Positions 1-63,475 of a stretch of 64,000 nt of DNA are shown here, piece after piece. Positions within the stretch are counted from its first letter, which is position 1. The number at the start of each line of letters is the position of its first letter. The DNA comes from Octopus vulgaris (lineage: Eukaryota). The stretch is from NCBI GenBank assembly GCA_951406725.2, contig OX597818.1, forward strand, positions 63,488,001-63,552,000, given 5' to 3'. Both the position numbers and the translations under genes were made by a program. The notes below the pieces were generated by a model. That model saw only the letters and a program-made list of their open reading frames with translations, had not been told where the DNA came from and made no database searches.

Positions 1-93
1 GTGAAATTTCGAAACTGTGTTCTGATTCCTAAATTATTTTTTGGATATTATTATCATTATCGTCATCCTCCTCCTCATCATCATCATGATCAC

Positions 94-168
<75 letters not shown>

Positions 169-260
169 TATTATTATTATTCAGGTGACTGCCTGGAATC
201 AAACTCGGATTCTTGGCGTTAGTAGCCCGCGTTCTTAACCCCTACGCCATATGGCCATGG
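1..260 (-). mobile_element. SINE family A (tRNA-like head + (AAT)n + tail), truncated by window start
   Basis: Reverse complement of 182-260 gives a tRNA-like head (TGGCGTAGGGG A-box, GAGTTTGATTCC B-box-like). 1-48 matches the start of the tail seen at 4719 and 33987. (TAT/CAT)n lies between them. Confidence 0.8.
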
Positions 261-264
261 GATA

Positions 265-1980: not shown

Positions 1981-3379
1981 TTACTAAATTAAAGCATTCA
2001 GATAAATTGATGCATCTGCCGTTTTATTCAAATACTGCGCAGAATTGTTGTTTTATCCATTGCCAAAATATCTCTACGCTCAACTGTTCCTCCAATGACA
2101 CTGTCATCCTACACTGTGTATTCCTTTTATATTCAATTTCTTGTAATAATGGACGACGAAGCTGTCACTATATAGAATTGTGAACACTATATCCTATCCC
2201 CGGCAACGTATAAAATATTTATCTTAACGTCATATAATTATAATTCACATTTATATTAACAATATTGTATATTTCAACTTCATCAGTATTTGAGCAGGAT
2301 GGGTATAATCCATATTACTGGAGTTCAGTCTAAATTATTAGATTATAACTGACATAACCCTGCACCCGGGTTACAAATAATTCTTATATTGTACTGAAAA
2401 TCAAAATGATATTTAAATGTTGGTTTCGCATTTTAGCACAATTTGGGGGATTTAATCGACTTACACTCTCCCTTGAAATTGCTGGTCTTGTGTTAATACT
2501 GGAAACCAGCGGTATTTGATGCTATGAATTATATCATCAGCGATCGCTGTCCAAACATTAAAACATAAACAACTTTATTTACATAGTATTTGCTCTACAC
2601 GATGTATATTCTACCTTTAAAAAATCACTAATATCTACACAATTATGTTTCTCAGTTCAAAGTAAAGCGAAATACACCAGATGTTGCGGTGTAATACAAT
2701 GCTTTGATGCATCATATTTGATAGATAATTATTATAATCAGTATGCTGTTGATATATTTGGTTCGGTTTGATTTATTCGTCTAATTTAATGACATCCGTT
2801 TAATGAGATTATTCATGAATTTTTAAATAAATATCTTTATAATAATTTCTCACTGTTGATATAGTGTGTTCTAAATAAGTCCTAAAACAATCTTCTTGGT
2901 TAATGTGTAGGTGTTATGCATTTCCATATGCATAAAGTTGGATACATCGTTGCCACACAAAAATGAGTAACATTTTTTTGTATAGCTTAACGAAAGAATT
3001 TTCAAAGCAAAAATAATAAATAAATACATATATAATATATATATATATATATATATCAATAAATGATGTAATTTTAAATGCTAATGTGATATCAGTACTA
3101 AAATAGTTTTGTTCGTTTAAATGCATTAAAATAATTTTGCTATATTCCACTTTATATTTCCAAAAGATAATAAAAATCAAGACTGTCATTTCTGGATAAA
3201 CTTTTAATTGCCGTATCATTAATGATTATATGCATTGGCTAGCAATTACCATGAGAGACAATAAAGTTATTTCACAAAAAAGTTTTCTCCTCAAGACCTG
3301 GATTGATATACATTATCACATGGCTACCTTATTATTAAATAATAATCCTTCAGATTAACTTGTAAGGCCATATGTGTTA

Positions 3380-3471
3380 CAGTTCTATATTTAAGAGATG
3401 AGGAATTATATACATTGTTTACATTATTTACATTTGACGGATATTTGTCCCATGTAAAATATGTAAATAAT
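3380..3471 (-). mobile_element. 5'-truncated family A tail insertion with 14-bp target-site duplication
   Basis: Matches the 3' end of family A (CTCTTAAATATAGAACTG). Flanked by GGCCATATGTGTTA at 3366-3379 and 3472-3485. Confidence 0.8.
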
Positions 3472-3564
3472 GGCCATATGTGTTATGTGATTTTAATCAT
3501 TTTTACGTCCAATGGTTTCACACAAATGACATATAATGAAGCAAGTCTGGAACTATTATTAAGG

Positions 3565-4647
3565 TCATTTCGCCATACTTTTTCCAAGCAATCGCTCAAC
3601 ATTCGATGCAATTCCTGACAGTTTCATACACTCCATAATCCTAGAATGCGGGATCATATCGTACCCTTTACGATAGTCGATCCATGACAAGGCTAAGTTA
3701 CTTTTCCTCCTCTTGCAGTCTCTGAGTACAGTTTTGTCTATCAGGAGTTGATCCTTGGTCCCTCTGCTCCTACGCTTGCAACCCTTCTGCTCATGTGGCA
3801 GGACTCCATTTTTTCTAGATGTTCGTACATTGATGCTGAGAGTGTTCCACTCACTAACTTCCACATAAGTGGCAAACAGGATATTGGCCCGTAAATGTCT
3901 ACTGGATTGCCTTTTCGATGTTTTTCAGGCACAGCACTGTCCTACCCAATGTCAACCACACTGGTGTTACTTGGTCGGCATTTAACAAGGTGTTGAGTTG
4001 CGCAGCTATTCGTGTCTGTCATTCACCAAATCTTTTGATCCAGTAGCCTTGAACTGCATCTGGTCCCGGGTCCTTCCAGTTGCTCATTTGTTTGCTGATT
4101 TCCTTCACTTCACTAACTGAAATAACAAGTTCTGCCTGTTTTGTACAGACTACTGTTTGTTTCAGTTCTTGCAACCATTCAGCATCCTTCTTGTGTGCTT
4201 TGTCTTTGCTCCAGTTGTCACTCCAAAACCTTTGACTTTCAATGTTATCTGGTAGTAAATTTTCATCTGTACATCCTCCATTTAATTATTTATAGAACCT
4301 CCTCTGATCTATTCTGAATAACCCATTCTGGTGGTAACACTTCATTCTTTAGTCGTATCTCACCATCTTTGCTTTCTTTGCAACAAAGAGCCGTTTCAGT
4401 TCCTTCATTACTAATTTCAGGCCCCTTCTTTCAATATTATACTTCCTTTACAGCGCCCTGTATTTTTGTTTGCTTTTAAGCTTCCCTTTCTCTTTTCGGT
4501 CTAACACAGAGAATTCCTTCGAGTGCATTCTAACCCTGCCAGGATTCTTCATTTCCACAATGGATCTTTTCTTTTGTCGCTCCCATTACGTTTCTTTTTC
4601 TTGACATTGACAAACACATTTTCATTTTCTTTGTGAACATGTGGGTG

Positions 4648-4648
<1 letters not shown>
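3565..4648 (-). mobile_element. R4/Dong-clade non-LTR retrotransposon fragment (RT N-terminal half, frameshifted)
   Basis: Peptides [29 protein letters not shown] and [20 protein letters not shown]...[14 protein letters not shown] are typical of R4-clade RT. It abuts (AAT)n, the known Dong target repeat. Confidence 0.85.
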
Positions 4649-4705
<57 letters not shown>

Positions 4706-4718
4706 GTTTTATTATTAT

Positions 4719-4905
4719 TAACATCCCAAAAATACCTTAGGAATGAGAATCCAGGTTCAAAATTTTCCCAAGCCACCTGACGAAGGCTGGAGGGTGTATC
4801 AGCCGAAACGTTGTGTTAACAACAAACAAGAAGGTCACGTATATCAGTCAGATGTAAATAATGTAAATAAAGTACGTAATTCATCATCTCTTAAATAGAG
4901 AACTG
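4719..4905 (+). mobile_element. Family A tail with hammerhead
   Basis: Aligns with 33987-34162 and ends in ...CTCTTAAATAGAGAACTG. Confidence 0.85.
4772..4817 (+). ncRNA. Minimal type I hammerhead ribozyme motif (family A)
   Basis: gcCAC-CUGACGA-A-GGCUG(GAGGGUGUAU)CAGCC-GAAAC-GUU-GUGuu. Core intact, helix II 5-6 bp, palindromic helix III AACGUU. Confidence 0.75.
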
Positions 4906-5035
4906 TAAAGATTTTAAAATATGCAAACCGATCTTTAAAATGTACACCATGATAAATATAAGCCTTGTAGACGAATGCGGCAAAATACACTACAATTCTC
5001 ACTACAGCGTGAGGAAAATAGGGTGGAGCAAGTAA

Positions 5036-8659: not shown

Positions 8660-9330
8660 ACAGATAACTAACCAGTATTTTCTTTTGATTTCACTATCTG
8701 CTAATACGGTTTGCAACCGTTATTTGAACTATTATTAATTTACAACTTCTTCCCAACGTTCAACAAGATTTTCAATACCTCGTTTGTAGAAATCACCTGA
8801 TTTCGCCTCGAAAAATTGATCCAACCAAGCTCTCAATTCTGCATCACGATTGAACGAAACTCCGTCGTGGTTGCATTTGAAAGAGATTGAAAGCGGTGGA
8901 AATCCTTTGGTACCAAATCAGGGGAGTACAGCGGTTATGGCAGCACTTCCCAGATTGAATGGCTTCCTTCGTCATATTGGCGATATGAGGGCGGGCGTTG
9001 TCGTGCAGCAAAACTCTATGCTGCCGATTAGGTATTTTCCCTTGAATAGCTGTGTTGAGTCGTTCCATCTGTTGAACTTAGAGTTCCGCGTTGACCCTTC
9101 GGTACCGTTCAAGCAATTTGTATTGGATAATCCCTTCCCTATCTCACCATACGCACAACATCGTTTTACGCGGATGAAGATCGTGTTTCACGTGCGGTGT
9201 CGCCTGTTTACGGGGGCTAAGCCATTCCTTACGCTGCTTGATATTGATGTACAGACACCATTTTTCGTCGCCAGTAACGATTCGTTGCTTGTGTCCATGT
9301 GTTGAGCGGTGACGAGCAAGCAAACCAGCG
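8660..9330 (-). mobile_element. Mariner (Tc1/mariner DD34D-type) transposase remnant, catalytic half
   Basis: Minus-strand peptides RIVTGDEKWCLY, LLHDNARPHIA and DFYKRGIENLVERWEEVV, with frameshifts and stops. Confidence 0.9.
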
Positions 9331-9656
9331 GAGAATGTGGATCGATGATTTTTGTTGTTGTCACTTAAAGCATGCGAGGAGAAGGAGGAGGAGGAATCGA
9401 TATCACTTTTGTATTGGAAAATTGGTTCATGGCAGCAGAGTTTCTATCCAAGTCGGAAATTGTTGCCAAATGATTTATCTATTCCAGCTTCGGTAGGATT
9501 TCACGTATAAAATATATATATAAAATAATGGTACACTAAACAACATTTCAAATAATCCTATTCGAGATATTATAATCTTTCACTTCGTTCAGTCATTAGA
9601 CGACGGCCACGCTGGGGCACCACCTTCAAGAGTTTTTAGTCGAATCGATCCCAGTG

Positions 9657-12628: not shown

Positions 12629-12785
12629 TAAAAACGGTAAGATTACAAAACAAAGAAAGAGACCTTAATATTATGTAAATAGAGGAAATTTATCTATAAA
12701 ATAATATGTAACAATTATTCAAGGCCAAGATAAAACTCAGAGGTTTATCTTGGCTATTAAATAATTGTCACATATTATTTTACAG

Positions 12786-12835
<50 letters not shown>

Positions 12836-13110: not shown

Positions 13111-13199
13111 ACATATTGCTTGACATGTGTGAGCGTATGTATTTTTCGATTTAAGTATGTATGAATATCTGAATTGGTGTAGCATAACTCTGTGGTATG

Positions 13200-13531
13200 C
13201 ATTATTTACATTTGACGATATTTATCCTCATTTTGTTTGTTGTGAAAACAACGTTTCGGCCTCGGGGAAATTTCGAGTCTGGGTTCTCACTTCCGAGGTA
13301 TTTTTCGATGTTATTGTTATTATTTTCATTATTATTATTATTGAGTGAGAGAGCAGTTCATGCCATCAAAGTGACACTGGGGTAAAATATACGACGCCCA
13401 ATATACCCATCATGACTACCCGTCTGATAAAGGTACACCAGGCACATGCATCACAACCATATGTGCGCGACATGGTGATCTCATATCAAGATAAACAGCA
13501 CATGACCTTGCAGGTATTATTATTATTATCA

Positions 13532-13587
<56 letters not shown>

Positions 13588-14141
13588 GAGTGAGAGAGCA
13601 GTTCATGCCATCAAAGTGACACTGGGGTAAAATATACGAAGCCCAATATACCCATCATGACTACCCGTCTGATAAAGGTACACCAGGCACATGCATCACA
13701 ACCATATGTGCGCGACATGGTGATCTCATATCAAGATAAACAGCACATGACCTTGCAGGTGGGGCCCAGTTAGAATTTTCTTCAGGTCGAGTAGCCCATC
13801 CCGCTCAAAAGGTCCCTGAATAAGGGTTGCTTTAGGATGTTGAACGAAACACCTATGTTTCCAGAGGTGAATTATTCAAACTCCAAAGAATCCCTCTCAA
13901 CACATGGCCATGAGGCTCCCCCACTACTTCTGCTCATGATCAGAGATGCACGTATTGTTAGCCACTAAGGGACATGCTCAACTGGTTAAGGTCAAACAAC
14001 TGACAAGCAAATCTGTGGTATTGAGCAGAATATTTGCTGTAGCCCATCTTTTATACCAAGACAAAACAATGTACATGATAACACTTCCAATCAGTTAAGA
14101 TCAGAAGCCATGAGAGCCACTGCCTGGTACTGCATCAGGGC

Positions 14142-14190
<49 letters not shown>

Positions 14191-14259
14191 GCTTAAGTCA
14201 CTGCTTGGAATCGAACTCCGAATCTTGGGGTTAGTAGCCCGCGCTCTTAATCACTACGC
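13200..14259 (-). mobile_element. SINE family A with nested insertions in its (AAT)n
   Basis: Tail at 13200-13312 keeps only the GAAACGTTG half of the hammerhead. Head at 14195-14259. Confidence 0.8.
13588..14143 (-). mobile_element. Non-coding (AAT)n-inserted element, about 555 bp, plus a near-identical truncated copy at 13343-13515
   Basis: Both copies are flanked by (ATT)n and share the same left end. The 173-bp overlap has one visible mismatch. Confidence 0.75.
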
Positions 14260-14395
14260 CCACGGGCATATGGCATAGTGGGTAAGAGCGCGGGCTACTA
14301 ATCCCAAGGTTCCGAATTCGATTTCAAGCAACTCCAGTGTGTATTTTATTTGCGAGTATTAATTGTAGCAATCTCAAAATAAAGCAGTATATTTC

Positions 14396-16627: not shown

Positions 16628-17281
16628 ATATGTAGTTAATCCAAACATGAAAACACAAAGAGAAAACAACAACGTGAGGACGTGGTACAAATATAGTATA
16701 GAAGCGCAAGGCACATGCGTTGTTATTCATAAGGAAATCGTTATTGAAAGCAATGCACTAACAACTGAAAGTGAATCGCAGTTGAAGCATAGGTAATATG
16801 AAAGGAGTTAGAACTATAAGCTGTATATTAGATTAGAAAGAAGGAAGCCTGATTTTCTTTCAGGGACAATGTTAAGTAGTATTCGTAATTAATATGTACG
16901 TCGTGTAATGAAAATATGTAACCTAACAGCATTGCTTGTAGTAAACGGTGACCTTTATTGCTGCTGAACAACCGATCCCATCCAATCAGGATTGACAGCA
17001 CGGTTTGTATTATTCATCCTTTCGATTACTGAATACAAAACGACGAACGCTAGACTCCCGATAGGGGGATTTGTTTGAGTCAGCATGTTACCCTTATGCA
17101 ACAATTAGGGGCAGGGTTACTCATTACTAGCTGAATAAACATGAGAAACGTAGAGCAAAGTGCTTTTCTCAAGAACACAATGTACAGCTTGCTTGGGAAT
17201 TGAACTCCCGACCTTGCAATCAGGATTGCAAGGTCACTAGGTAATATAGAAAGAAGATAACAGGAGAGTAATATTAATTAC

Positions 17282-18711: not shown

Positions 18712-18720
18712 TATATATAT

Positions 18721-18832
18721 ATTATTCACATTAGCTACAATTGACGGATGTTTGTTGTTAAGAAACAAGATGAGGATATATTCATGTCAATTTAAATTAA
18801 TGTAAACATGTTACATAATTCATTATCTCTCA

Positions 18833-18838
<6 letters not shown>
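18721..18838 (+). mobile_element. Degenerate family A tail with short inverted piece
   Basis: AAACAAGATGAGGA...CATAATTCATTATCTCT is preceded by inverted ACAATTGACGGATGTTTGT. Confidence 0.6.
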
Positions 18839-18875: not shown

Positions 18876-19196
<321 letters not shown>

Positions 19197-21362
19197 TATA
19201 TATATATATATATATAGTTATAGATAGATAGATTGATATACATCGATATACATATACAAACACATGGCAAACACACACACCACACACACAGACATACAGG
19301 CACACACATTTATATATAAACACGCACATGCATACAAGTATGTTGGTACATAGTGGAGTGCTTCCCAGTTACTAATAAGTGTAACAATTTCTTTGAATTT
19401 GTTTTCGATACTTAAATTCACTCACGTGGTACCTGTCTGGGAGATGTACAGGAATACATAGGAAAGTAATCTTCTGTATACTATTCATAATGGAATTGAA
19501 AAGAATCAGCTTTAAACTTGTTCCAGTTGTAGGACTGAATGGAATTATAAAATACAGACGTATCTATAATTTTAGAATAAGGTGTTCATAGCTTTACAAG
19601 TGAAACATAAAATCGCAGTTCTCAATGTTTCTGAATGGAACGCTGCTTTTTCAAAGTGGAAAGGTGCGATTTGGCTCACATTCAAGCGAAGGATTATTGA
19701 GTTAAGTTATTTTTCTTCTTTAATCGAAGGAACGATTTTATCGCTCACAGATCCTGAAGTAAAAATAAGTATCAGAACTTGCGATCTCAGGTGATTTAAG
19801 GAAAGAAAATGCGATTTAGATACACCAAGTGACATCACAGAGAAAGCCGTAACGTGGCAACGAAATAAAACGATAACTTTTCGAAATATGTTTCATGCAT
19901 CTGAAGTGAGTACCGTGGTTAAAAAAAAAAAACACCCTTCAAACACAACATGTCTAAATTTACTGTAGCCATTCATTCGCATGTTCACCCTAAAAATTTC
20001 TTATTTCAAAGATGATCACTATTTTCTAGTATTAATGTTAATTAAAAAATGTTCTAAGCAATTCCAATCAATTCACTGAAAGCTTTCATACCAAATAACT
20101 TTCTTAATAATTAGTTTCTCTATTCGCAGCATCTGAATTAACAGAAGTTTTCCATGCATAATGCTATTTTAATCGTATTTTTCTGTTTAAAATATATCTT
20201 CAAAAAGGAGGATTAACTATACCGAAACATATGAATAGTTACCTTTGTACTATTATCATGAAAACAACTAATTACACTACCGAATTTCTATTGTTATTTA
20301 ATTTGTATTACATCCTGTGTGATCTCGTTTACTTTTCCAAGAAAGAAACAAAGAGAATTTAGTTAAGGAACCTTACTCTCAGTACACTTGCAACGAGGCA
20401 CTATCATATTAATTGCGCCCAATCTTCAGTACTCTATATGAGAGAAAAGCGGTTATAGTGTATTAAAACTTATGGAAAACTCAATATTGCATAGAGAACG
20501 CAAAGTTTGTGTTTTGAGAGATTTTTCTGGAAAAAATACTTTCCCTTCAAATGCCATCAAATATGAAAATTAAATTATTTTCATTATTACACAAGAATGA
20601 TGGGAATATAGTCATTTGCAATTTATGCAGACGTGTCACTGCTGCGTGTATTTCCTCGGGGACCTTTGATGTATTATGTTTACACTATGATAACGAAATA
20701 AACAACGGCGGAGAAAATCCATAGAGTTAGACGAACCTTAAATCATTGATGTTATGCGATATTTATTAAGTATATCAATTTTATTCGTTTACTACTTGGG
20801 ATTCATTAGCGGGACTTATCTAAGTTATTTTGTTCCACTAGGGTTTGCAGGACGTTCTCGTCGAGCGCTACATATCTTTCAGGACGATCTTCTAGGCTAT
20901 AGTTTCTGGTTCGGAATATTTGGCTCGGAAAATGTATTACATGTCATAGTTAACTTGAAAATATTAAATTTTATTTCATTGTGGGGGAAACTTTGGTGTA
21001 TGGATACTTACATGCATACACTCACGCATTCTACACACACACATACACACACACACACATACGTATATATGGAGGTATATGTACATTCGTATACACTAGG
21101 AGTCTATGTACGTATGTATATATACATGTATGGGTATCTATGCGTTTTTGTGAGTGGTTGGCTATTTTATATATAGAATTATCGTTTTGATGTCGATTAT
21201 TAGATTAGGTGATTATATGGGATACCAAAATCAAGATATGGCATATCATAAAAAAATGCAATAGCTAACCATTTTACCACTTTAGGAAGACTAGTTGAAA
21301 TTTATGTTCAAAACAAGTATTTCACAGTTAATATCCGGAAATATTATACAGGAAAACGGGTA

Positions 21363-28134: not shown

Positions 28135-29478
28135 TCACGTACAAACATATACGTTTATTCCCATTTCTAACACACAAAGCACTGATGCAGTCGATTGTCA
28201 AAAGAAATTGCTAACCATTCCAATGATTATTCACACTATCAGCACTAAAAGCAAATATCTCAAGTTCTTTCCTATAAATATACACACGTAAAAAATAAAT
28301 AAATATTATAAATAGATTAATCTAAACAAGCATCTTTTCTGTCCGTTATTATTACGTAGAATGCTGATTGGCGATATGAATAAGAGGACGAGTTCTGAGT
28401 ACAGTAAGTGCATTGCACCCGTGAATATAAAAGGAAAGCATTATATAATATATTGAGAACCACTACACGGAGAGAATACAGCGGTGGATCTGCATTCCTT
28501 CATAATATATTCCTGCAAATAAAAGCCACATTGCGGTTTGACATTCAACATTAAAATGTGTTTGGGTTTTCGTTCTTTATTTCGTAATTATTTGTTGTTT
28601 TCGTACATTTCTTTTAAAATATTTTACGCGTTACTGGTTTCAGTCATTAAGCTGCTGTCATAATCGGGCACTGTTTTGAAGGGATTAATCGAACAAAGCT
28701 ACCCCCGCGTCATTTAGTTTTCTTTAAAATTCTGGGACATATCTCATGAGTTTTTTTTTTGCCGAATCGCTAAGTTATGGAACGTAGATAAATGAAGACC
28801 GGTTGTGAATAGGTGGCGGGAGACAAGCACTGCATAAATTAAGACATACGCATATATATACATACATACATTTATATATATATATATATTTCTGATGAAA
28901 CTACATGAGTAGTTGAAAGCGCTTATATGAAGTAAAAATATGTAATATGTAAATAAATATATATTTGTACAACCATCCAGCATTCTGAACATCTTTTTTC
29001 TTTCATATATGTATATATATATAAATTTCTCAAATTTCCTTCTAACAGATTCACGAAAAAAATTCATTCACCCTGGGGTTACCGTAAAATATATGTCTTC
29101 ATTGCCACTCAGTGTGACAGAACCCAACACTAGCAAACACCTTAACTGCACAACTCTGCCAGCTCCTATATGGAATTTTTTCTGCTACGTCTAAATGCGT
29201 ACTGTCTTAAGTACGACATTTTTCGGCCTCCAAGGTTAGCGTGTAAACCAGAGCAATCTTTGAACACAATATCATCACGGACTGAGCAGTGGGATCGAAA
29301 ACTAAACGAGTGGTTGCGAAAGGAATTTCTCAATCACACTTGCGTGTCTTTTTTTTTTTCTTTTTTTAGTCGATTTGTGACTAAAATCTAGGCCATGCCT
29401 TCTGATTCATGATAAAACCGGTGCTTGGATCTCTTTTGTATATCTTTTCGGAGCAGCCTTGAAGTCCTTGTTCTAAAC

Positions 29479-29986: not shown

Positions 29987-30209
29987 TATTTCTTTACTAC
30001 CCACAATGGGCTCAGAGAGGGCAAACAAGGACCATCGGATTAAGTCTATTATATCGACCTCAGTGCGTAACTGGTACTTAATTTATCGACCCCCGAAAGG
30101 ATGAAAGGCAAAGTCGACCTCGGCGGAATTTGAACTCAGAACGTAACGGCAGACGAAATACGGCTACGCATTTCGCCCGGCGTGCTAACGCTTATGCCAG
30201 CTCGTCGCC
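29987..30209 (-). mobile_element. CORE-type SINE family B
   Basis: Near-full match to 788-1018. Confidence 0.85.
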
Positions 30210-33745: not shown

Positions 33746-33826
33746 CCCTTGGGCATATGGCGTAGTGGTAAAGAGCGCGGAGGGTACTAACACCAAGTTT
33801 CCGAGTTCGATTCCAGGCAGTCAACG

Positions 33827-33857
<31 letters not shown>

Positions 33858-33862
33858 TATAA

Positions 33863-33933
<71 letters not shown>

Positions 33934-34162
33934 AGAAAAGAAGAAGAAGAAGAAGAAGAAGAACAACAACAACAACAACAACAACAACATCGAAAAATAC
34001 CTTAGGGATGAGAACCCAGGTTCGAAATTTTCTCATGACACTTGATGAAGCCGAAACGTTCTGTTAATAACAAACAAGATGAGGACAAATATCCGTCAAA
34101 TGTAAATAGTGTAAATAATGTAAATAATGTACATAATTCATCATCTCTTAAATATAGAACTG
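33746..34162 (+). mobile_element. Complete SINE family A copy
   Basis: tRNA-like head 33751-33827, compound trinucleotide tract, tail 33987-34162. The hammerhead remnant at 34037-34065 has helix II deleted and C3 changed to U. Confidence 0.85.
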
Positions 34163-34326
34163 TAAGGAAAAATATAGCCTTAAACTGTAAATTTCAATGT
34201 CACGGCAGCGAAAGCACAACCAACAGCAGAACGAATGATATTAACAGCATGAACCGTATTCTTGTGGCGATAGAAATTCGCCGTGTGTACCCATTTATTT
34301 TGCTTGCAATATATAAAAAAAAATAG

Positions 34327-34752
34327 GGCGGCGAGCTGGCAGAAGCGTTAGCACGCCGCGCGAAATGCTTAGTTTTATTTCGTCTGTCGTCACGTTCTGT
34401 GTTCAAATGACGCCGAGGTCGACTTTGCATTTCATACTTTCTGGGTCGATTAAATAAGTACCAGTTGCGTACTGGAGTCGATCTGATCGACTGGTCCCTT
34501 CCCCAAAAATTTCGGGACCTGTGCCTAGAGTAGAAAAGAATTTATAGAAAAAAATCAGGACGGTGAGCTTGCAGAATCCTTGGCACGCCGGGCGAATTGC
34601 TTAGCGGTATGCCTTCCTTCGTTACGTGCTGAGTTCGAATTACGCCGAGGTCGCACCACTTACGCACTGGGGTCAATATAATCGACTTAATCCCTCAGTC
34701 TGTCCTTGTTTGTCCCCTCTATATTTAGCCCCTTGTGGGCTATAAAGAAATA
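34327..34752 (+). mobile_element. Two CORE-type SINE family B copies with different 3' ends
   Basis: 34327-34522 ends GTGCCTAGAGTAGAAAAGAAT. 34558-34752 ends CCCCTTGTGGGCTATAAAGAAATA. Confidence 0.85.
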
Positions 34753-35229: not shown

Positions 35230-36019
35230 TGATACATACTTACACATATATATATATATATATGTGTCTGTGTGTATGTGTATATATATATACATATATT
35301 GTCTGTGTGCACGTCTTTGTCTGTGTCCTTGCCTCTGTCTCTGCACAGGAATTTATTTTCGGAGCAAATTTGTGGCAGATCACATGAATAGGAACGTAAA
35401 ATAATGGTACACTAGAATATCTATGCAATAATTATGAAGTATCATATTAAAAATGAATAGCAGGACGTGCTAAGATATGACAGCTGTACATCCTTTTTCT
35501 TAAATCCAACGTCAACGAGTTCCTTTTCTTTTATCTGATATAATATAATCTGAATGCGCTGCACCAGTAAATTCCACCATAATACATAAATATTTTTGCT
35601 GATAAATACTCCGAAACGCGTAAATACGCTTAATGATTTTTTTGAAGAGTTTCTTGGCAAATTTGCATTTTAATTATTGCATGCTAAAGCCTATTAATCT
35701 GGTACTATTTATATTAAAGTATAGCAGAAATGTATTATATGTTATATTTTTATAGTTATAACTTACTTATTTCAGTGTTTAGATTGTGGCCACTATGGGG
35801 CAACACCTTAAAAGATTTAATCGTTCTGTTCGATCCCAGTTCTTTAATTTTACATATTGGTTCTTACTCTATTATTCTTATTTTCCGAATTGCTAAGTTA
35901 TCGGTGCGTAGAGAAACCAAACACCGATTTTCAGGCGGTGGTTGAAGGCAAACACAAACTGAAAGACAAACGCACACTCTCATATAATATATAAATCTAT
36001 TTACATTATTATTATTATT

Positions 36020-36537
36020 CTATGTTTGACTTTTGCTTTATTTTTGTACAAGTTGACTCCAAGTTTCACCCAGAGACTTCAAGAGACAACAGGTTGGAAG
36101 TTCGTATTGTTGTTATGCCTAGTGTGCCATATATTTGGTTTTGTATTTAGTGTTGTACTAGTGAATGCCTAAAATAAAAACGAAATTTATGTTTGTTTTA
36201 AAACTTGAGATTAAATAGAAAGTATTTTGCGTAGGATATGAGCAGTTCCCATGAGCACTATCTTTTGAATTTCTGCCATTTTGGGGTTTCCTGGTATCTG
36301 AGTTAGGTAGCGATCAACCCCTTTTGCTATCATTCCCAGGGTACCTATGACAACAGGTATTGTTTTAGTCTTCAGGTTCCACATTTTGCTGATTTCTATT
36401 TCAAGATCTTTATATTTGCACAATTTTTGACAGATACGTTTATATAGATTGGGACAGTCATATCAATGAGGAGGCATGCTCTTTGTTTGAAGACTATCAA
36501 TATGATGTCTGGCCTATTTGCATCTATCTTTCTGTCA

Positions 36538-36540
<3 letters not shown>
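36020..36540 (-). mobile_element. 5'-truncated R4/Dong element: restriction-like endonuclease end plus 3' UTR
   Basis: DRKIDANRPDII...KYKDLEIEISKMWNLKTKTIPVVIGTLG...LMGTAHILRKILS. (AAT)n on both sides. Confidence 0.88.
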
Positions 36541-36607
<67 letters not shown>

Positions 36608-36629
36608 GTTGTTATCATTATTACTATTA

Positions 36630-36685
36630 AAGTGACTGCCTGGAATCGAACTCGACATTTTGTGGTTACTAGCCCGCGTTCTTCA
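36630..36685 (-). mobile_element. SINE family A head fragment
   Basis: Matches 182-240, followed on its own strand by (AAT)n. Confidence 0.7.
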
Positions 36686-37528
36686 CTGTGCTAAGCAAAT
36701 TACAAAACTTGATATGAGGTAAGTCGTTCCCATTGACTCTAGTGCTCAGGTGGTACCTATTTTATCGCCACCAAAATATTAAAGGCAATGTCCACCTCGG
36801 CAGAATTCGTACTCAGAACATGTCGACATAGGAAGCGCCGGTAAGCATTTTGTCCAACACTTTATCTATCATAAATAATAAGACACAATAAGGATCAATA
36901 ATAATGCCTTTAATAAATCGCTTGATCTGCAAAAACAATTTGTTTAGTTTCTTATGATCAAATTGGTAAAAGGCTTTGCATAGAGCGGACGAAGTTCTCC
37001 AGCATCCGAGAGCGTATTACGATGTGTACCTCTAACAGTTGTTGGAAAGACTGCATCAGTATACAGTCAGACGTTTGGGTAAGAATAATAGTTTAAGAGT
37101 CGAACATGGCTGATCAAATATGAGACAGAAGAAGATCTTCTTTGTAGTGGGTGCTCCTAATTACCCAATTTTACCTTGACATTATGCGACATTCACAGAA
37201 AGTTGCAATCTTATTTTAAGTATCGAAACGTTATTGATTCAGAACGGAATTATGGATGAACGAAAGCGTCAGCTTTGCATGCGGAAGAACATGAAGGAAG
37301 GGCAGGAAGACGGGACAAGCATTGATGCATTTACCATATGTAACATCTTGTACAACATAATATATTTCATTCACAGTGTACGGGTGCACGCGATATATGT
37401 CACATTATATAATGACATGCAATTTGCAATTTTCCCTTTCAAATATATATATATATAAACAAAAAATTCAGGGTGAATACTTGATAAATGTAAGCACCTG
37501 TATATGCCAGTTAGTGGTGGAGGTGTAG

Positions 37529-37677: not shown

Positions 37678-38295
<618 letters not shown>

Positions 38296-38298
<3 letters not shown>

Positions 38299-38480
38299 AT
38301 GACAACAAAAGAATGAATGAAACATCGATATTATGTGAAATTGAGGAATTTATCAATAAATGTATGTGACAATTAGTTGGTTGTCATAATAAAATTCAGA
38401 GTTTCGGATACCGGAGTTGAAGTCCGATCCAGTACCCGAAACTCTGAGTTTTATTATGACAACCAACTAATTGTCACATA
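38296..38480 (-). mobile_element. Fold-back copy of family F
   Basis: Arms 38363-38415 and 38428-38480 are near-perfect inverted repeats. Sequence aligns with 12640-12740 and 63360-63470. Confidence 0.8.
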
Positions 38481-38555
<75 letters not shown>

Positions 38556-46620: not shown

Positions 46621-48283
46621 CTACTTTATTTCATGAAAGATTCGCCATTAAGGCGTTACATAGAGGGAACATACAAATACAGACAAACATATAGGGTGTA
46701 GTAGCTTAAAACGTTGGTGATTACAATAAAATATGTATAATATTTACGATATAAGGTTTTAAAAATTTGGTATTATACAGTAGAGCACGGATCCCTGCCA
46801 TCCGGGTAGAACCTTTACTTCTTGATCCGGCCACACTTACCTGGTGCCAGATATACCCAGCTTGCACGCTACAGACTTCCATCTCTTCGCAAACATATCT
46901 CGTAACAGACACCTCTTCTCCAGCCTGATCTTACTACCGAGGTGGTAACTAGCCACTGTTGCACCTATTGAATGAGAAACGATAAGGTTTAATAAAGACC
47001 TAAATAAAATTTCTATTCAAAAACTCGAATATTTAAACAAATATTTTCAGTTATATTATCTAGAGCTTTAACGAATGTGTAATTTTCTTTTAGTGAGCTA
47101 CTGTAAAAAAAAAACCAATGTTATAAATCCTCTGTACCATTTTGTAGCAGATATTTTTTTTCTATTTCTCCAAGAAATTGATCATTAATAAAAGTCATTG
47201 TGAGCGTTATGTGTACGAGATAAGTGACTAGTGAAAAATAAAAATAAATAAATAAATATATAAAACGTATTACAATTTGGCGTTATCTCTGTATTTACAA
47301 AGTTATAATCATATTTACATCATTTCCGCGTCGACAAAATGCTTTACTAATACAAAGATGTTAATCTACCTTTCGCATCACCTCGTCACTTCGTCTGCAG
47401 AAGTGATGCACATTTCAACTTTTTGTCAATGTACACACAGCTTTTATAATTATTTAACTATTTTCCATATTCGCCGCTTGATTTAGCAAAGTTGTTGATG
47501 AGAGAAGCGCGTTCAAAAGAATGATTTAGATCATTGTACAAACAGGACGCTTTCCATCATAAGTTGCATTATATGCGTGTGAGAGAGAAGGAGGGCGAGC
47601 GGGAGAGAGGGTGTATCTCTGGATAAGTAGCTGTGTGCGGAACTGAATGTATGTGAGTGTTTGTGTGCGTTTGGGTACGTGCGTGTGAGAAGGCGTGTAT
47701 GAGTCCCTGTGGTTCTCAAGTAATCGATGTACGTGGCATCGTTCGTTATTTTTCCCTCTACACCTACGTGAATTGTTTTTGAGTATACATTGTCTGGGAG
47801 ACTCTTCTTATAGTAGAGGAAATAGCTAAATTCTTTGGCTGCTATTTCTAAAATTTCGGTGTGTGGTAAAGTAAATTTTTTTGCTGGACCCTAATTATAT
47901 AACGTAATGTTTTAAATATACCGTAAATGGTGTTTTTACATACTGAACACTACTTGGTAAAATTATTAATTAATAATTAATTAATTTTACCCTTATTATT
48001 ATTGACTATATATATATATATATCATCAATCCTTCTTTCCTTTTCTGAGCATCCAATAATACTATATTTGTTCCACGTCCTCGCGTTGTTGTGTTTTCTC
48101 TTTGTGTCTTCATGCTTGGATTAACTTTATATATATATATATATATATATACATATGCGTATACATATACACCTTCTTTCACACTATTATGGATCATCCT
48201 GCTCTGTCCCCTGTTATACACTCCACGCACTGCTACGCAGCTGTAGCTGCCGATGCACCTCCAAAATTCTTTCTCGCTTTCTT

Positions 48284-59354: not shown

Positions 59355-59840
59355 AGACCTCGCACAACCTCTAGGGATACGGACACTTATTTCATAAGCT
59401 ACAATAAGAATTCCGGTTATACATTTCTTTCAAACGGAACAACATTTTTGAAACCATGAATAATACAAGGTACAGTTCGCAGAATTAGAATTGAAAAGGA
59501 ATAAAACAGGCGGCAGCAAGTGAGGTTAGTGCACCTTCGCACACCTACTCATATATACACACATATATGTATGTGTATGCAAGATTTATATATATATATT
59601 CATGCATAAATCTTGCATACACATACATATATGTGTGTATATATGAGTAGGTGTGCGAAGGTGCACTAACCTCACTTGCTGCCGCCTGTTTTATTCCTTT
59701 TCAATTCTAATTCTGCGAACTGTACCTTGTATTATTCATGGTTTCAAAAATGTTATTCCGTTTGAAAGAAATGTATAACCGGAATTCTTATTGTAGCTTA
59801 TGAAATAAGTGTCCGTATCCCTAGAGGTTGTGCGAGGTCT
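59355..59840. repeat. 235-bp near-perfect inverted duplication with 16-bp spacer
   Basis: 59355-59589 is the reverse complement of 59606-59840 with one mismatch seen. Confidence 0.95.
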
Positions 59841-61514
59841 TGTGGGTGTGTGTGAGTGGGGTGGGTGTTTGTATTTGTTATGGGTGTGTGTTTTACGTGT
59901 GTGTATTTGTGTGTGAATGTATAGGTTAAAGGGATTGCTATATAAGTATGTTATAGGGTTTAGCAAAGGGAGGTTTTATCATTTATGTTTTTATGAGTTT
60001 TAATTTATCATGGTAATTTTATTAAAGAATCCATTCATAATTTTTTTTAAATAATGTTGGTTTACCGCGTGAATATAGTTTTTAATTCCATTTATTCTAT
60101 TTCTCCATTCATAATTTTAAGTGACGTTTGCTTCCATAGCGCGTATTCTTTTTATACATAAGTTATGTTCTTATGGTAACGTAATTTTGGTTTGATGTTT
60201 TTTAACGGCTTAGAATTTAATTTCACTTCATAATTTGAAACTGACTTGAAAGTATGTATATTATTTCTCCTTATGTCATGTTGTTATTTTTGATATTCTG
60301 GTTACTTACGATGTATTTTATATATAGTATTATTTGTAATAATGTTGTTTTTCTTTGGAGTGTTTATGTATGTGGGATTGTGTGTGAGTGTGTGCGTATT
60401 TTGGTTGTGTAATTTATTTATCTGTATGAGTGTGGGTGTGTTAATATTGTTGTATATATCGAGTTTGGTGAGTATGTATATGTATATGGTGTGTGTTTAC
60501 GTATGTATATTTGTGTGTGAATGTGTTTATGGGTTTGCTATATAGGTTTGGGGATGTATGTGTTTATTTGTCTGTGTGGGGTTGAGTGGGTTTTTGGAGT
60601 ATATGTTGAGGTTTATATGTATGTATAGGTATGTGTGAGTGAGGTGGGTATTTGTATATGTCGTGGGTGTGTGGTTTACGTGTGTGTATTTGTGTGTGAA
60701 TGTTTAGGTTAGGGGGATTGCTATATAGGTATGTTATAGAGTTTAGTAAAGGGAGATTTTATCATTATATGTTTTTATGAGTTTTGGTTTGTCATGGTAG
60801 TTTTATTAAGGAATTCGTAGTAGTTTGTGTCTATTTGCGATGTCTGTTGTTTTATTGCATGTTTTCATTCATAATTTTTAAGTAATGTTCGTTTTACCAA
60901 GTGAATATAATTTTTAATTCCATTTATTCCATTTCTCCATTCATAATTTTAAATGATGTCCGTTTCTAGAGCGGGAATGTGGGTTGTATGTGTGTGTGAG
61001 GGAGTATGAATAAGTATTGTGTTGAAGTATTTGGCTATTTTATTTATTTATCGTTGCCTAGACGTTTTTATGTGTATGTATAGGGATATATATATAGGTG
61101 TGTGATTTAGTGTATGTATTTAGATATGGTTATATATAATTAGTTATATGTGTATGGGTATATATATAGTTTATTTTTTGTTTTGTTTTATATTTTATAT
61201 TTTATATTTTATATTTTATATTTAATTGTTGAAAGGTTTATTTTAGTTTATATATTGTTTATATATTGATTATATATGGATTATATATAGGTTATATATA
61301 GATTATATATTTATATTTTTTCATTAATACTTTAATTATTTTAAAATTATTATTTTTATATTTTAAAATATTGATATTTTAGATTGGAAGTCCACCTGAA
61401 GATTGTCGATTAGGACAAGAAACAATTGTAGTGGCGGTTTTTTTGACTTTTTATTAAAATTTTATGTATTGATTAAGTTTTTCCTTGTTTGTTTTGCAAA
61501 ATAGTGGTTTTGTC

Positions 61515-61567: not shown

Positions 61568-62178
61568 TATGTAAGTAGTTGAATGAATTATCTTAGTATG
61601 GATAATTCGGTTAACCGATACCCGGGTAGCAAATTCACGTCAGCAAAACAAGGTTGGAGGGGAGAGATCTAAGAATAGGTAGGTGATAGGGTGCAAGTCA
61701 TATGAATGGTGATTTGTTGTTTGCTTTTGTGATTGAGTGCCTATGTGTGTGTATGTATATAACTGCATTCGTGTCTATGTGTGTGTATGTGTGTGCGTGA
61801 TTGTGTGTGTGGTTGGGTAGATGCCAAAAACAAACAGTGGTGGAGTGACAGGTTTGTGTCTGTGTGTTTGATTGTGCTTACGATAGAGAGAGGGAAAGAG
61901 AGAGAAAGAGAGAGGAGGGCGAGGTAGAGAGACAAAGGTAAAACATTTATTTATATATATATGTATGTATGTATTTATGTATACTTCAAAATGTAACCAC
62001 GCGTGTATCGTTCACGATTTTCTTCCTCCGTCTTCCCTTCTTTTGGTCTTTCTTCATTCATTCCTTTCCTGAACGTCTGATAATACATTACCTCTACCAT
62101 GTCCTCGTATCGATGTTTTTTTCTTGTGTGTCCTTCTTTGTTTGGATTCAATATATATATATACATACATACATACAC

Positions 62179-62804: not shown

Positions 62805-63002
62805 TAATCCAAACAAGAAAACACAAAAAAAACACAACAACGCGAGGACGTGGAACAAATATAGTATTATTGGACGCTCAGGAAAGAAGGGGAGAAGGAG
62901 GGTTTAAAGTTTCGAGCGGAGCTCTTCGTCGGAAACATAGGAGAAGGAAAGATCCCGAGAAGGGAAGACAGAGGAAAAAAATCGCCAACGGCACACACGA
63001 GG

Positions 63003-63005
<3 letters not shown>
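62802..63005 (-). mobile_element. Family G copy with altered hammerhead (62902-62936)
   Basis: Aligns to 18983-19196. Core reads CCGACGA...GAAACUUU. Confidence 0.85.
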
Positions 63006-63040
<35 letters not shown>

Positions 63041-63291
63041 GTATATAATATGTGTGGTTTAGTTCGCTGACGAATTAAACCAATACGTGCACTGTATAAG
63101 TGCTATAATTGGTTATCCGTTACCTTCCGAGTTCTCAGCTTAGGCTGGAGCAAGTGTTCCGGAGCATACCTTTCTGTCAGCAGTTATAAATTAAAGAAAA
63201 TGTTGACCTCGGATACTCATCCTGCCTTCGTTTTGTTTTCCATTTTCATTTATATATATATATAGATATATGTGTGTGTGTGTGTGTGTAT

Positions 63292-63475
63292 GTGTGACAA
63301 TTAATCGGTTGCCATAATTGCCTCGATAACTGAAGATGCCGGACCAGGTTTCTGTTCCGACATCCGAAACTCGGAGTCTTATTATGGCAACCGAATAATT
63401 GTCACATATTATATTACAGATAAATTGTTTTATTTACGTAATATCTAGGTCTATTTCCTCATTTTGTTGTCTTAA
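63292..63475 (+). mobile_element. Family F element with hammerhead (63325-63383)
   Basis: gAUAA-CUGAAGA-UGcCGGA...UCCGaCA-UCC-GAAACUC-G-GAGUC-UUAUu, enclosed by about 26-bp inverted repeats. Confidence 0.7.

Follow-up and report, generated by a model that had tools for sequence, protein, structure and literature searches.

A SINE-like repeat family of Octopus vulgaris in which an AAT microsatellite links a tRNA-like head to a tail whose majority sequence matches the minimal hammerhead motif

The window analysed here, a 64-kb stretch of Octopus vulgaris DNA, contains copies of a repeat family in which a tail follows a tRNA-like head across an AAT microsatellite; the majority sequence of this tail matches the minimal hammerhead motif. 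The family is short, non-coding, interspersed and present in high copy number. Its best explanation, in which we place moderate confidence, is a head-array-hammerhead-tail repeat that is likely transcribed by Pol III and likely copied as one unit by a Penelope-like reverse transcriptase and endonuclease. More tentatively, the family may be a true Pol III tRNA-headed SINE mobilised as one unit by a Penelope-like reverse transcriptase and a GIY-YIG endonuclease, and not by a LINE, and its hammerhead tail may have spread through several octopus-like genomes to places of the order of 100,000 in number; it would then be an undescribed Penelope counterpart of the SINE-LINE partnership and of that between Cassandra, Helenus or Ajax and LTR elements.

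Anatomy and copies in the window

Heads and tails were counted by BLAST within the window, which contains five head copies and six tail copies (Table 1). Pairwise likeness is 77-89% among heads and 81-96% among tails where the overlap exceeds 25 bases. In the head of the focal element, the A and B boxes stand at tRNA-like spacing (A at 33758, B at 33805). Scored with patterns that we take to represent the two boxes, the B box is found in four of the five heads and the A box, with at most one mismatch, also in four, one of them at a shifted position. Three head copies share a start point just upstream of the A box. ARAGORN found no tRNA genes and the Rfam tRNA model gave no match at E values up to 10 in three head regions, a kind of search that decayed heads often escape. 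A B-box-like word at 34020-34028, within the tail, was considered as a second promoter and set aside, as it has one mismatch, is not accompanied by an A box and may be due to chance.

The whole tail of the focal copy runs from 33988 to 34164 and carries an extra 9-nt unit. SINE tails are poly(A), a tandem repeat or a LINE 3' end; at the fixed 3' end of this family there is neither poly(A) nor a tandem repeat, and a comparison within the window gave no match of the tail to LINE-like fragments. Since its tail type thus appears to depart from one SINE criterion, the family is called SINE-like here. Downstream of the focal element, at a distance of 160 bp (34320-34492), there is a copy of another abundant SINE-like family, which occurs also at 30043-30209, 853-1018 and 36722-36850.

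Table 1. Parts of the focal element, further copies of its family and copies of a second hammerhead family, with positions in the window
Feature	Positions	Strand	Remarks
Focal element: tRNA-like head	33746-33827	+	A box 33758-33768, B box 33805-33813; no intact cloverleaf
Focal element: internal compound microsatellite	33828-33989	+	(AAT)12(TAG)24(AAG)11(AAC)9; (AAT)n in other copies
Focal element: tail 5' part, between array and hammerhead	33988-34036	+	Identical start behind the array in four copies
Focal element: broken minimal type I hammerhead motif	34037-34065	+	Core change at 34042, stem II deleted; predicted cut after 34060
Focal element: tail body with 9-nt repeat block	34066-34126	+	The family's short 3' end falls inside the block
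Focal element: 38-nt terminal extension	34127-34164	+	Stops at the fixed long 3' end; no poly(A), no array
Second head-array-tail copy	1-263	-	Cut by the window edge before the hammerhead
Third head-array-tail copy	13196-14260	-	Head 14197-14260; tail 13196-13310 with hammerhead deletion and short 3' end
Inverted head	14264-14330	+	Back-to-back with the 14260 head; one variant common to both and absent from the other three heads
Headless tail	4648-4907	+	Sole near-intact hammerhead of the family in the window (4772-4817); preceded by an inverted array
5'-truncated tail with inverted duplicate	3366-3485	-	Tail 3378-3450, inverted duplicate of the repeat block 3451-3471; perfect 14-bp direct repeat at 3472-3485 and 3366-3379
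5'-truncated tail with inverted duplicate	18714-18836	+	Tail 18762-18836, inverted duplicate 18714-18762; continues into (TA)n
Fifth head with array, LINE-like 3' fragment and short array	36005-36690	-	Head 36631-36690, LINE-like fragment 36020-36540; no tail by BLAST
Second hammerhead family	18987-19226	-	Intact motif 19084-19118
Second hammerhead family	62807-63039	-	
Second hammerhead family	61951-62140	+	
Second hammerhead family	48030-48121	+	
Second hammerhead family	16639-16699	-	

None of the window copies combines a head with an intact hammerhead. At the 36005-36690 locus just seven bases recall the short tail end, which is only suggestive. The array of the third composite copy holds two nested inserts: 13590-14143 is a 554-bp non-coding element and 13345-13515 a 171-bp, near-identical partial copy of it. 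The AAT array flanks each on both sides; the 554-bp element is likely a young array-targeting element.

The hammerhead motif of the tail

The focal copy has a broken motif, with T in place of the core C at 34042 and about 20 nt of stem II missing, and the first-pass annotation had pieced together a complete hammerhead from this copy (34037-34065) and the headless tail at 4772-4817. Four of the 24 public runs that match the tail were aligned to 33966-34230 at 80% likeness (5,339 RNA reads; 16,568, 16,909 and 737 contigs). In all four, the majority of the loose ends before 34049 restores an intact stem II (1099 reads; 244, 259 and 23 contigs; agreement 0.75-0.87), while the core C at 34042 and the G at 34061, the first base after the cut, account for 85-99.6% of the depth. 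The majorities of the runs thus give the motif exactly as it had been guessed, so that the reconstruction is not an artefact of mixing two copies. In the majority motif, helix I measures 5 bp, an unpaired A accompanies the core, helix II has 6 bp and is closed by G-C, and where helix III would stand there is a palindromic join of four bases. According to the available text of PMC4209133, the minimal hammerhead consensus of metazoan Penelope elements comprises a CUGANGAH core, a G-C closed helix II of about 6 bp, GAAAN, a palindromic 15.2-16.2 join, NUH and a short helix I; every one of these terms is found in the majority sequence and in 4772-4817, but not in the focal copy. Helix II of 4772-4817 has 6 bp and -6.7 kcal/mol.

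A structural descriptor returned three hammerhead-like cores in the window, including 4774-4815, versus none in 100 resampled windows, and the bare core pattern matched eight times versus 2.6 expected. A search of Rfam with the whole window showed no hammerhead or tRNA in the best 150 of 253 matches, all below the gathering score and nearly all of them microsatellite-driven microRNA models; nor was either among the matches listed for four small regions. This blank says little because minimal motifs have no helix III. Free folding of the motif and of the heads was no better than that of shuffled sequences (z from -1.16 to +1.61), so that folding energy gives no support. Other words resembling the hammerhead core were noted at 28892-28918 (+), 61392-61434 (+), which passes the structural descriptor, and 63290-63409; the core-like word at 63330 sits in a palindromic repeat found also at 38347-38486 and 12687-12787.

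The motif deletions of the focal and 13200 copies count against function in those copies, and the CpG beside the core is altered in about 18-20% of the DNA depth at each base. Integrated copies run through the predicted cut, which implies that the RNA that was copied was uncut or rejoined and that self-cleavage does not set its ends. In vitro, a single minimal hammerhead was without detectable cleavage and dimers were cleaved little (PMC4209133, available text). Self-cleavage of single copies appears doubtful. The U at the cut site was also considered as the mark of a false motif and this was rejected, U being common there in Hydra-clade motifs (PMC8557442, part of the supplement).

A single copied unit and its alternatives

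Four window tails keep their 5' start, and three of these sit behind a head of the same orientation across (AAT)n. Such a head-array-tail linkage had been proposed for three loci in the first-pass annotation; all three are present, with ends now refined to 1-263, 13196-14260 and 33746-34164, and each linked copy has an array, though it is pure (AAT)n, as had been stated, only in some copies and compound in the focal one. The first and last of these copies join directly across the array and the other across its two nested inserts. The fourth tail 5' start (4722) follows an inverted array and has no head. As for the five heads, three are linked, one (14264) is the inverted twin of a linked head and one (36686) has no tail. 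Under uniform random placement, a null that ignores any common preference for arrays, the probability is 4e-4 for at least two links within 200 bp and 2e-4 for at least three within 1 kb. Linked copies have the same junctions and different flanks.

In target-primed copying the 3' end of an element joins the nick, so an array-targeting element keeps the array on its 3' side. The window offers controls: (AAT)n flanks each of the two nested inserts and the LINE-like fragment on either side, and all five copies of a second hammerhead family end in (TA)n. The composite family has (AAT)n upstream of the head in none of five cases, with no array of any kind there, and downstream of the tail 3' end in none of five window ends, one of which meets (TA)n. 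In the public runs, the letters behind 34164 are diverse and AT-rich (agreement 0.41-0.44 over the loose ends listed there, 657 RNA reads and 334 and 293 contigs of the DNA runs; in the run with 334, another 143 contigs end at 34162). We therefore reject the idea that the head targets (AAT)n as well as the idea that the tail merely targets the (AAT)n of a SINE, which the first-pass annotation had named among the findings that would speak against it. With non-array DNA at both outer ends and the array at both inner junctions, the simplest reading makes the array part of a single template. Against a single unit it must be said that the linkage is known from one 64-kb window and that in one of the three links about 880 bp of inserts intervene. 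Microsatellites abound in the AT-rich window, and a 585-bp AAT array at 37715-38299 has neither head nor tail at its edges.

The tail could instead be a non-autonomous Penelope-type hammerhead family of its own, or the 3' end of an autonomous one, with (AAT)n at its 5' side, to which heads join secondarily and repeatedly by template switching or AAT-microhomology recombination without any fused master being amplified. Repeated chance fusion would hardly yield the same junctions at three of four independent head loci within 64 kb, and the headless tails that seem to speak for it, which are common (three of the six window copies, and a low depth on the array side of the tail), are already predicted by 5' truncation. 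Some support for secondary fusion comes from the second hammerhead family, which has no tRNA head, from the one head without a tail and from the two composite copies with both ends in the window, around which no significant target-site duplication was found. On balance we consider it unlikely.

The ends and integration scars of the tail bear on how the unit is copied. The main 3' end, at 34164, is fixed, bears no poly(A) and lies about 95 nt beyond the predicted cut in copies that do not have the extra 9-nt unit of the focal copy, close to the 90 nt first estimated; that estimate had allowed for one end, and there is a second, short 3' end some 35-38 nt before the long one. Among the ends listed, loose ends with diverse flanks behind 34108 amount to 162 contigs in run X1 and 100 in run X9. 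Those behind 34119 were rejected as true ends since their consensus runs on into the extension. Two of the six window tail copies (3366 and 18714) are 5'-truncated, and in each an inverted piece repeats a portion of the direct one. These inverted pieces both stop in the 9-nt repeat block, like the 13200 copy, and 35-38 nt short of the long end. For Penelope-like elements, the available text of PMC8557442 describes truncation from the 5' end, with a truncated copy in inverted orientation on that side, a tail of 30-40 bp at one end and hammerheads near the 3' end; the one-sided extension of 35-38 nt fits the 30-40 bp one. That a SINE had borrowed Penelope-like machinery together with a self-cleaving module was the original proposal, and its Penelope part is backed by the inverted duplicates, the extension and the lack of poly(A), whereas the self-cleaving part is doubtful for single copies because copies span the cut and cleavage of a single minimal hammerhead was undetectable in vitro.

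A perfect 14-bp duplication surrounds one copy (3366-3485). When six cases were tested for target-site duplications, five were not significant (103-300 of 300 nulls as good) and in the sixth 8 of 300 were as good at 8 bp, the duplication being 14 bp on inspection. Among 15 joints listed, five are to the opposite strand, one goes back and nine are skips; the opposite-strand joints rest on one to three contigs or one RNA junction and their geometry is ambiguous. With so few contigs behind them, the joints are given little weight here. Partial tandems are indicated by a few joints that go back, in single contigs or one RNA junction, and are absent from the window.

Duplications of this kind and 5' inversions also arise with L1-type copying, and the family could be an ordinary SINE that has a LINE 3' end as its tail, inversions due to twin priming and an incidental hammerhead motif. 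The 4648 copy has the inversion geometry of twin priming, and L1-Tx1, RTE and Dong-R4 are reported, in the sources available, as recently active in O. vulgaris. However, the tail ends in neither poly(A) nor a terminal tandem repeat, has no BLAST match to the LINE-like fragments of the window and satisfies all terms of the Penelope minimal consensus, and the inverted pieces duplicate the direct piece and have their outer end in common, which makes a LINE-derived tail improbable. Equally improbable is a cycle like that of Sm-alpha or the retrozymes, in which multimeric RNA from tandem master arrays is cut by hammerheads to monomers or circles whose offspring are the dispersed copies: the order of promoter and hammerhead is that of Sm-alpha, the few joints that go back indicate partial tandems and Penelope machinery has been proposed for retrozymes in the accounts available, but the window contains no tandem array, copies begin with the head and have their end not at the cut but about 95 nt beyond it, and tail sequence upstream of the head is absent for every head in the window.

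For the preferred reading, a single unit copied by Penelope-like enzymes, the following course can be proposed. The family would go back to a head-(AAT)n SINE behind which a Penelope-type terminal unit had come to sit, and to the later amplification of this fused master copy. RNA would be transcribed by Pol III from the head, and priming would begin at the fixed long 3' end and usually stop early, leaving many headless tails. Resolution of the 5' junction would often leave an inverted duplicate, and the outer end of this duplicate would coincide with the short end, 35-38 nt inside. The hammerhead would most likely be part of the borrowed Penelope terminal signal, or a passenger; it would cleave only as a dimer, and integrated copies would derive from RNA uncut at that site. 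Penelope-like elements are reported to make up 6.83% of O. vulgaris in the source available. No Penelope-type domain that could represent an autonomous partner was detected in the 115 window frames scanned, two tail motifs had no exact match in the searched part of the PMC8557442 supplement, and the exact tail pattern had no matches in viral, metagenome and prokaryote collections.

Abundance, known relatives and neighbouring elements

The tail stretch is present in public runs of five organism labels. In DNA runs the summed contig depth, which is not a copy number, peaks at 4.5 and 8.0 million, single contigs listed having a depth of 10-69; together with the six copies in 64 kb, this leads us to infer a tail copy number of the order of 100,000. 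Where the tail adjoins the array, depth falls to 0.16-0.23 of the peak, a drop that is partly technical, as the reference has a deletion and private changes there; most tails are accordingly probably headless. In the RNA run both directions are equal and read starts or ends do not pile up, so that nothing points to a discrete or cleaved RNA, in a type of library that may not reveal one. The missing T4 in the majority tail was discarded as evidence of Pol III transcription, since 28% of control windows lack T4 too. Over 33993-34164, A>G and T>C account for 32 of 67 places in the RNA run versus 7 of 32 and 7 of 30 in the DNA runs; the excess was noted in runs X24 and X15 over X9 and X1. Of the 12 minor A>G or T>C sites tabulated, 10 have an RNA share that is 5- to 60-fold the DNA share, though the same tendency is seen at four C>T sites. 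The pattern suggests that passively transcribed tail copies undergo A-to-I editing, in a comparison where RNA and DNA come from differing individuals; high editing has been reported for octopus (PMC5625713, available text).

Several ingredients of the family are already known: a Pol III promoter combined with a hammerhead, non-autonomous Penelope-like elements, retrozymes and LTR elements derived from small RNAs. The schistosome SINE-like elements Sm-alpha and Sj-alpha (PMC6765202, PMC8490949, as far as their available text goes) likewise have a Pol III-type promoter followed by a type I hammerhead. They are, however, tandem repeats cut to monomers by an active hammerhead, whereas the octopus family is dispersed, has a minimal motif of the dimer type and an internal array, spans the cut and bears Penelope-type scars. 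An internal promoter paired with a hammerhead is not new in itself (PMC6765202); what was not found in the literature searched is a dispersed tRNA-headed element with Penelope-type scars or end, most subscription papers lying beyond that scope, and the family may sit in Dfam, Repbase or SINEBase under an automatic label. With the pseudo-LTRs of Penelope-like elements and their non-autonomous relatives (MRC1 in Chlamydomonas, short ones in Heliconius) it shares the minimal hammerhead near the 3' end, the 5' truncation, the inverted 5' duplicate and the 30-40 bp extension. In contrast to them, it has a tRNA-like Pol III head, which the available parts of the descriptions compared do not mention, and does not end in a microsatellite target. 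The Hydra-1 motif, the one octopus hammerhead found in the literature searched (PMC8557442, part of the supplement), differs in sequence from the motif of the octopus tail.

Animal non-LTR retrozymes resemble the family in being non-coding and hammerhead-bearing and in their proposed dependence on Penelope. As described in the texts available, they form tandem repeats with a hammerhead per unit, mostly of canonical motifs, and circular RNA, and no tRNA head is mentioned, whereas the octopus family has no tandem array in the window and its unit ends are not set by the cut. Octopus tRNA-derived SINEs, including tRNA-Deu and tRNA-CORE, share with it the tRNA-like head with A and B boxes and the high copy number, but SINE tails are, in the descriptions available, LINE-derived, A-rich or tandem repeats, unlike the hammerhead tail. 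Three families of octopus tRNA-derived SINEs were reportedly distinguished by Ohshima and Okada in 1994, OR2 being a CORE SINE. Cassandra, Helenus and Ajax (PMC10886601, available text) are also non-autonomous elements that contain small-RNA-derived sequence and are moved by a partner other than a LINE; these are LTR elements, and the octopus family would be their Penelope counterpart.

The classification of SINEs follows their LINE partners. If a tRNA-headed element does have a Penelope-type 3' end, parasites derived from small RNAs would gain a third kind of host enzyme, the cis signal of Penelope would shrink to about 100-175 nt, and copying would be seen to tolerate an uncut single hammerhead. 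A large share of cephalopod repeat annotations may be misfiled members of the family, which may also give rise to edited double-stranded RNA. The function of hammerheads in Penelope-like elements is unclear according to the available text of PMC8557442, and they may simply parasitise them; the octopus family is consequently a short natural test substrate with very many insertion scars.

Other mobile elements were seen in the window. The second hammerhead family (Table 1) is unrelated to the first, measures about 240 bp, has a minimal hammerhead and shows (TA)n also 5' of its two longest copies; it has the appearance of a non-autonomous Penelope-type unit with (TA)n as its target. Two LINE-like fragments, which we take to be R4/Dong-like, lie on the reverse strand: 36005-36540 is an endonuclease-like end with a 3' UTR between AAT arrays, whose portion 36214-36462, presumably an R4/Dong-type endonuclease end, groups with clusters of mostly Mollusca members, and 3568-3924 is a reverse transcriptase piece (RVT_1, E 0.00086). 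Among molluscs, the R4/Dong type has been reported almost only from cephalopods (PMC10294476, available text). At 59521-59674 there is a MITE-like perfect inverted repeat with about 30 bp per arm and a (TA/CA)-rich core, and 9147-9443 (-) is a fragment of a mariner-type transposase (Transposase_1, E 2.3e-06).
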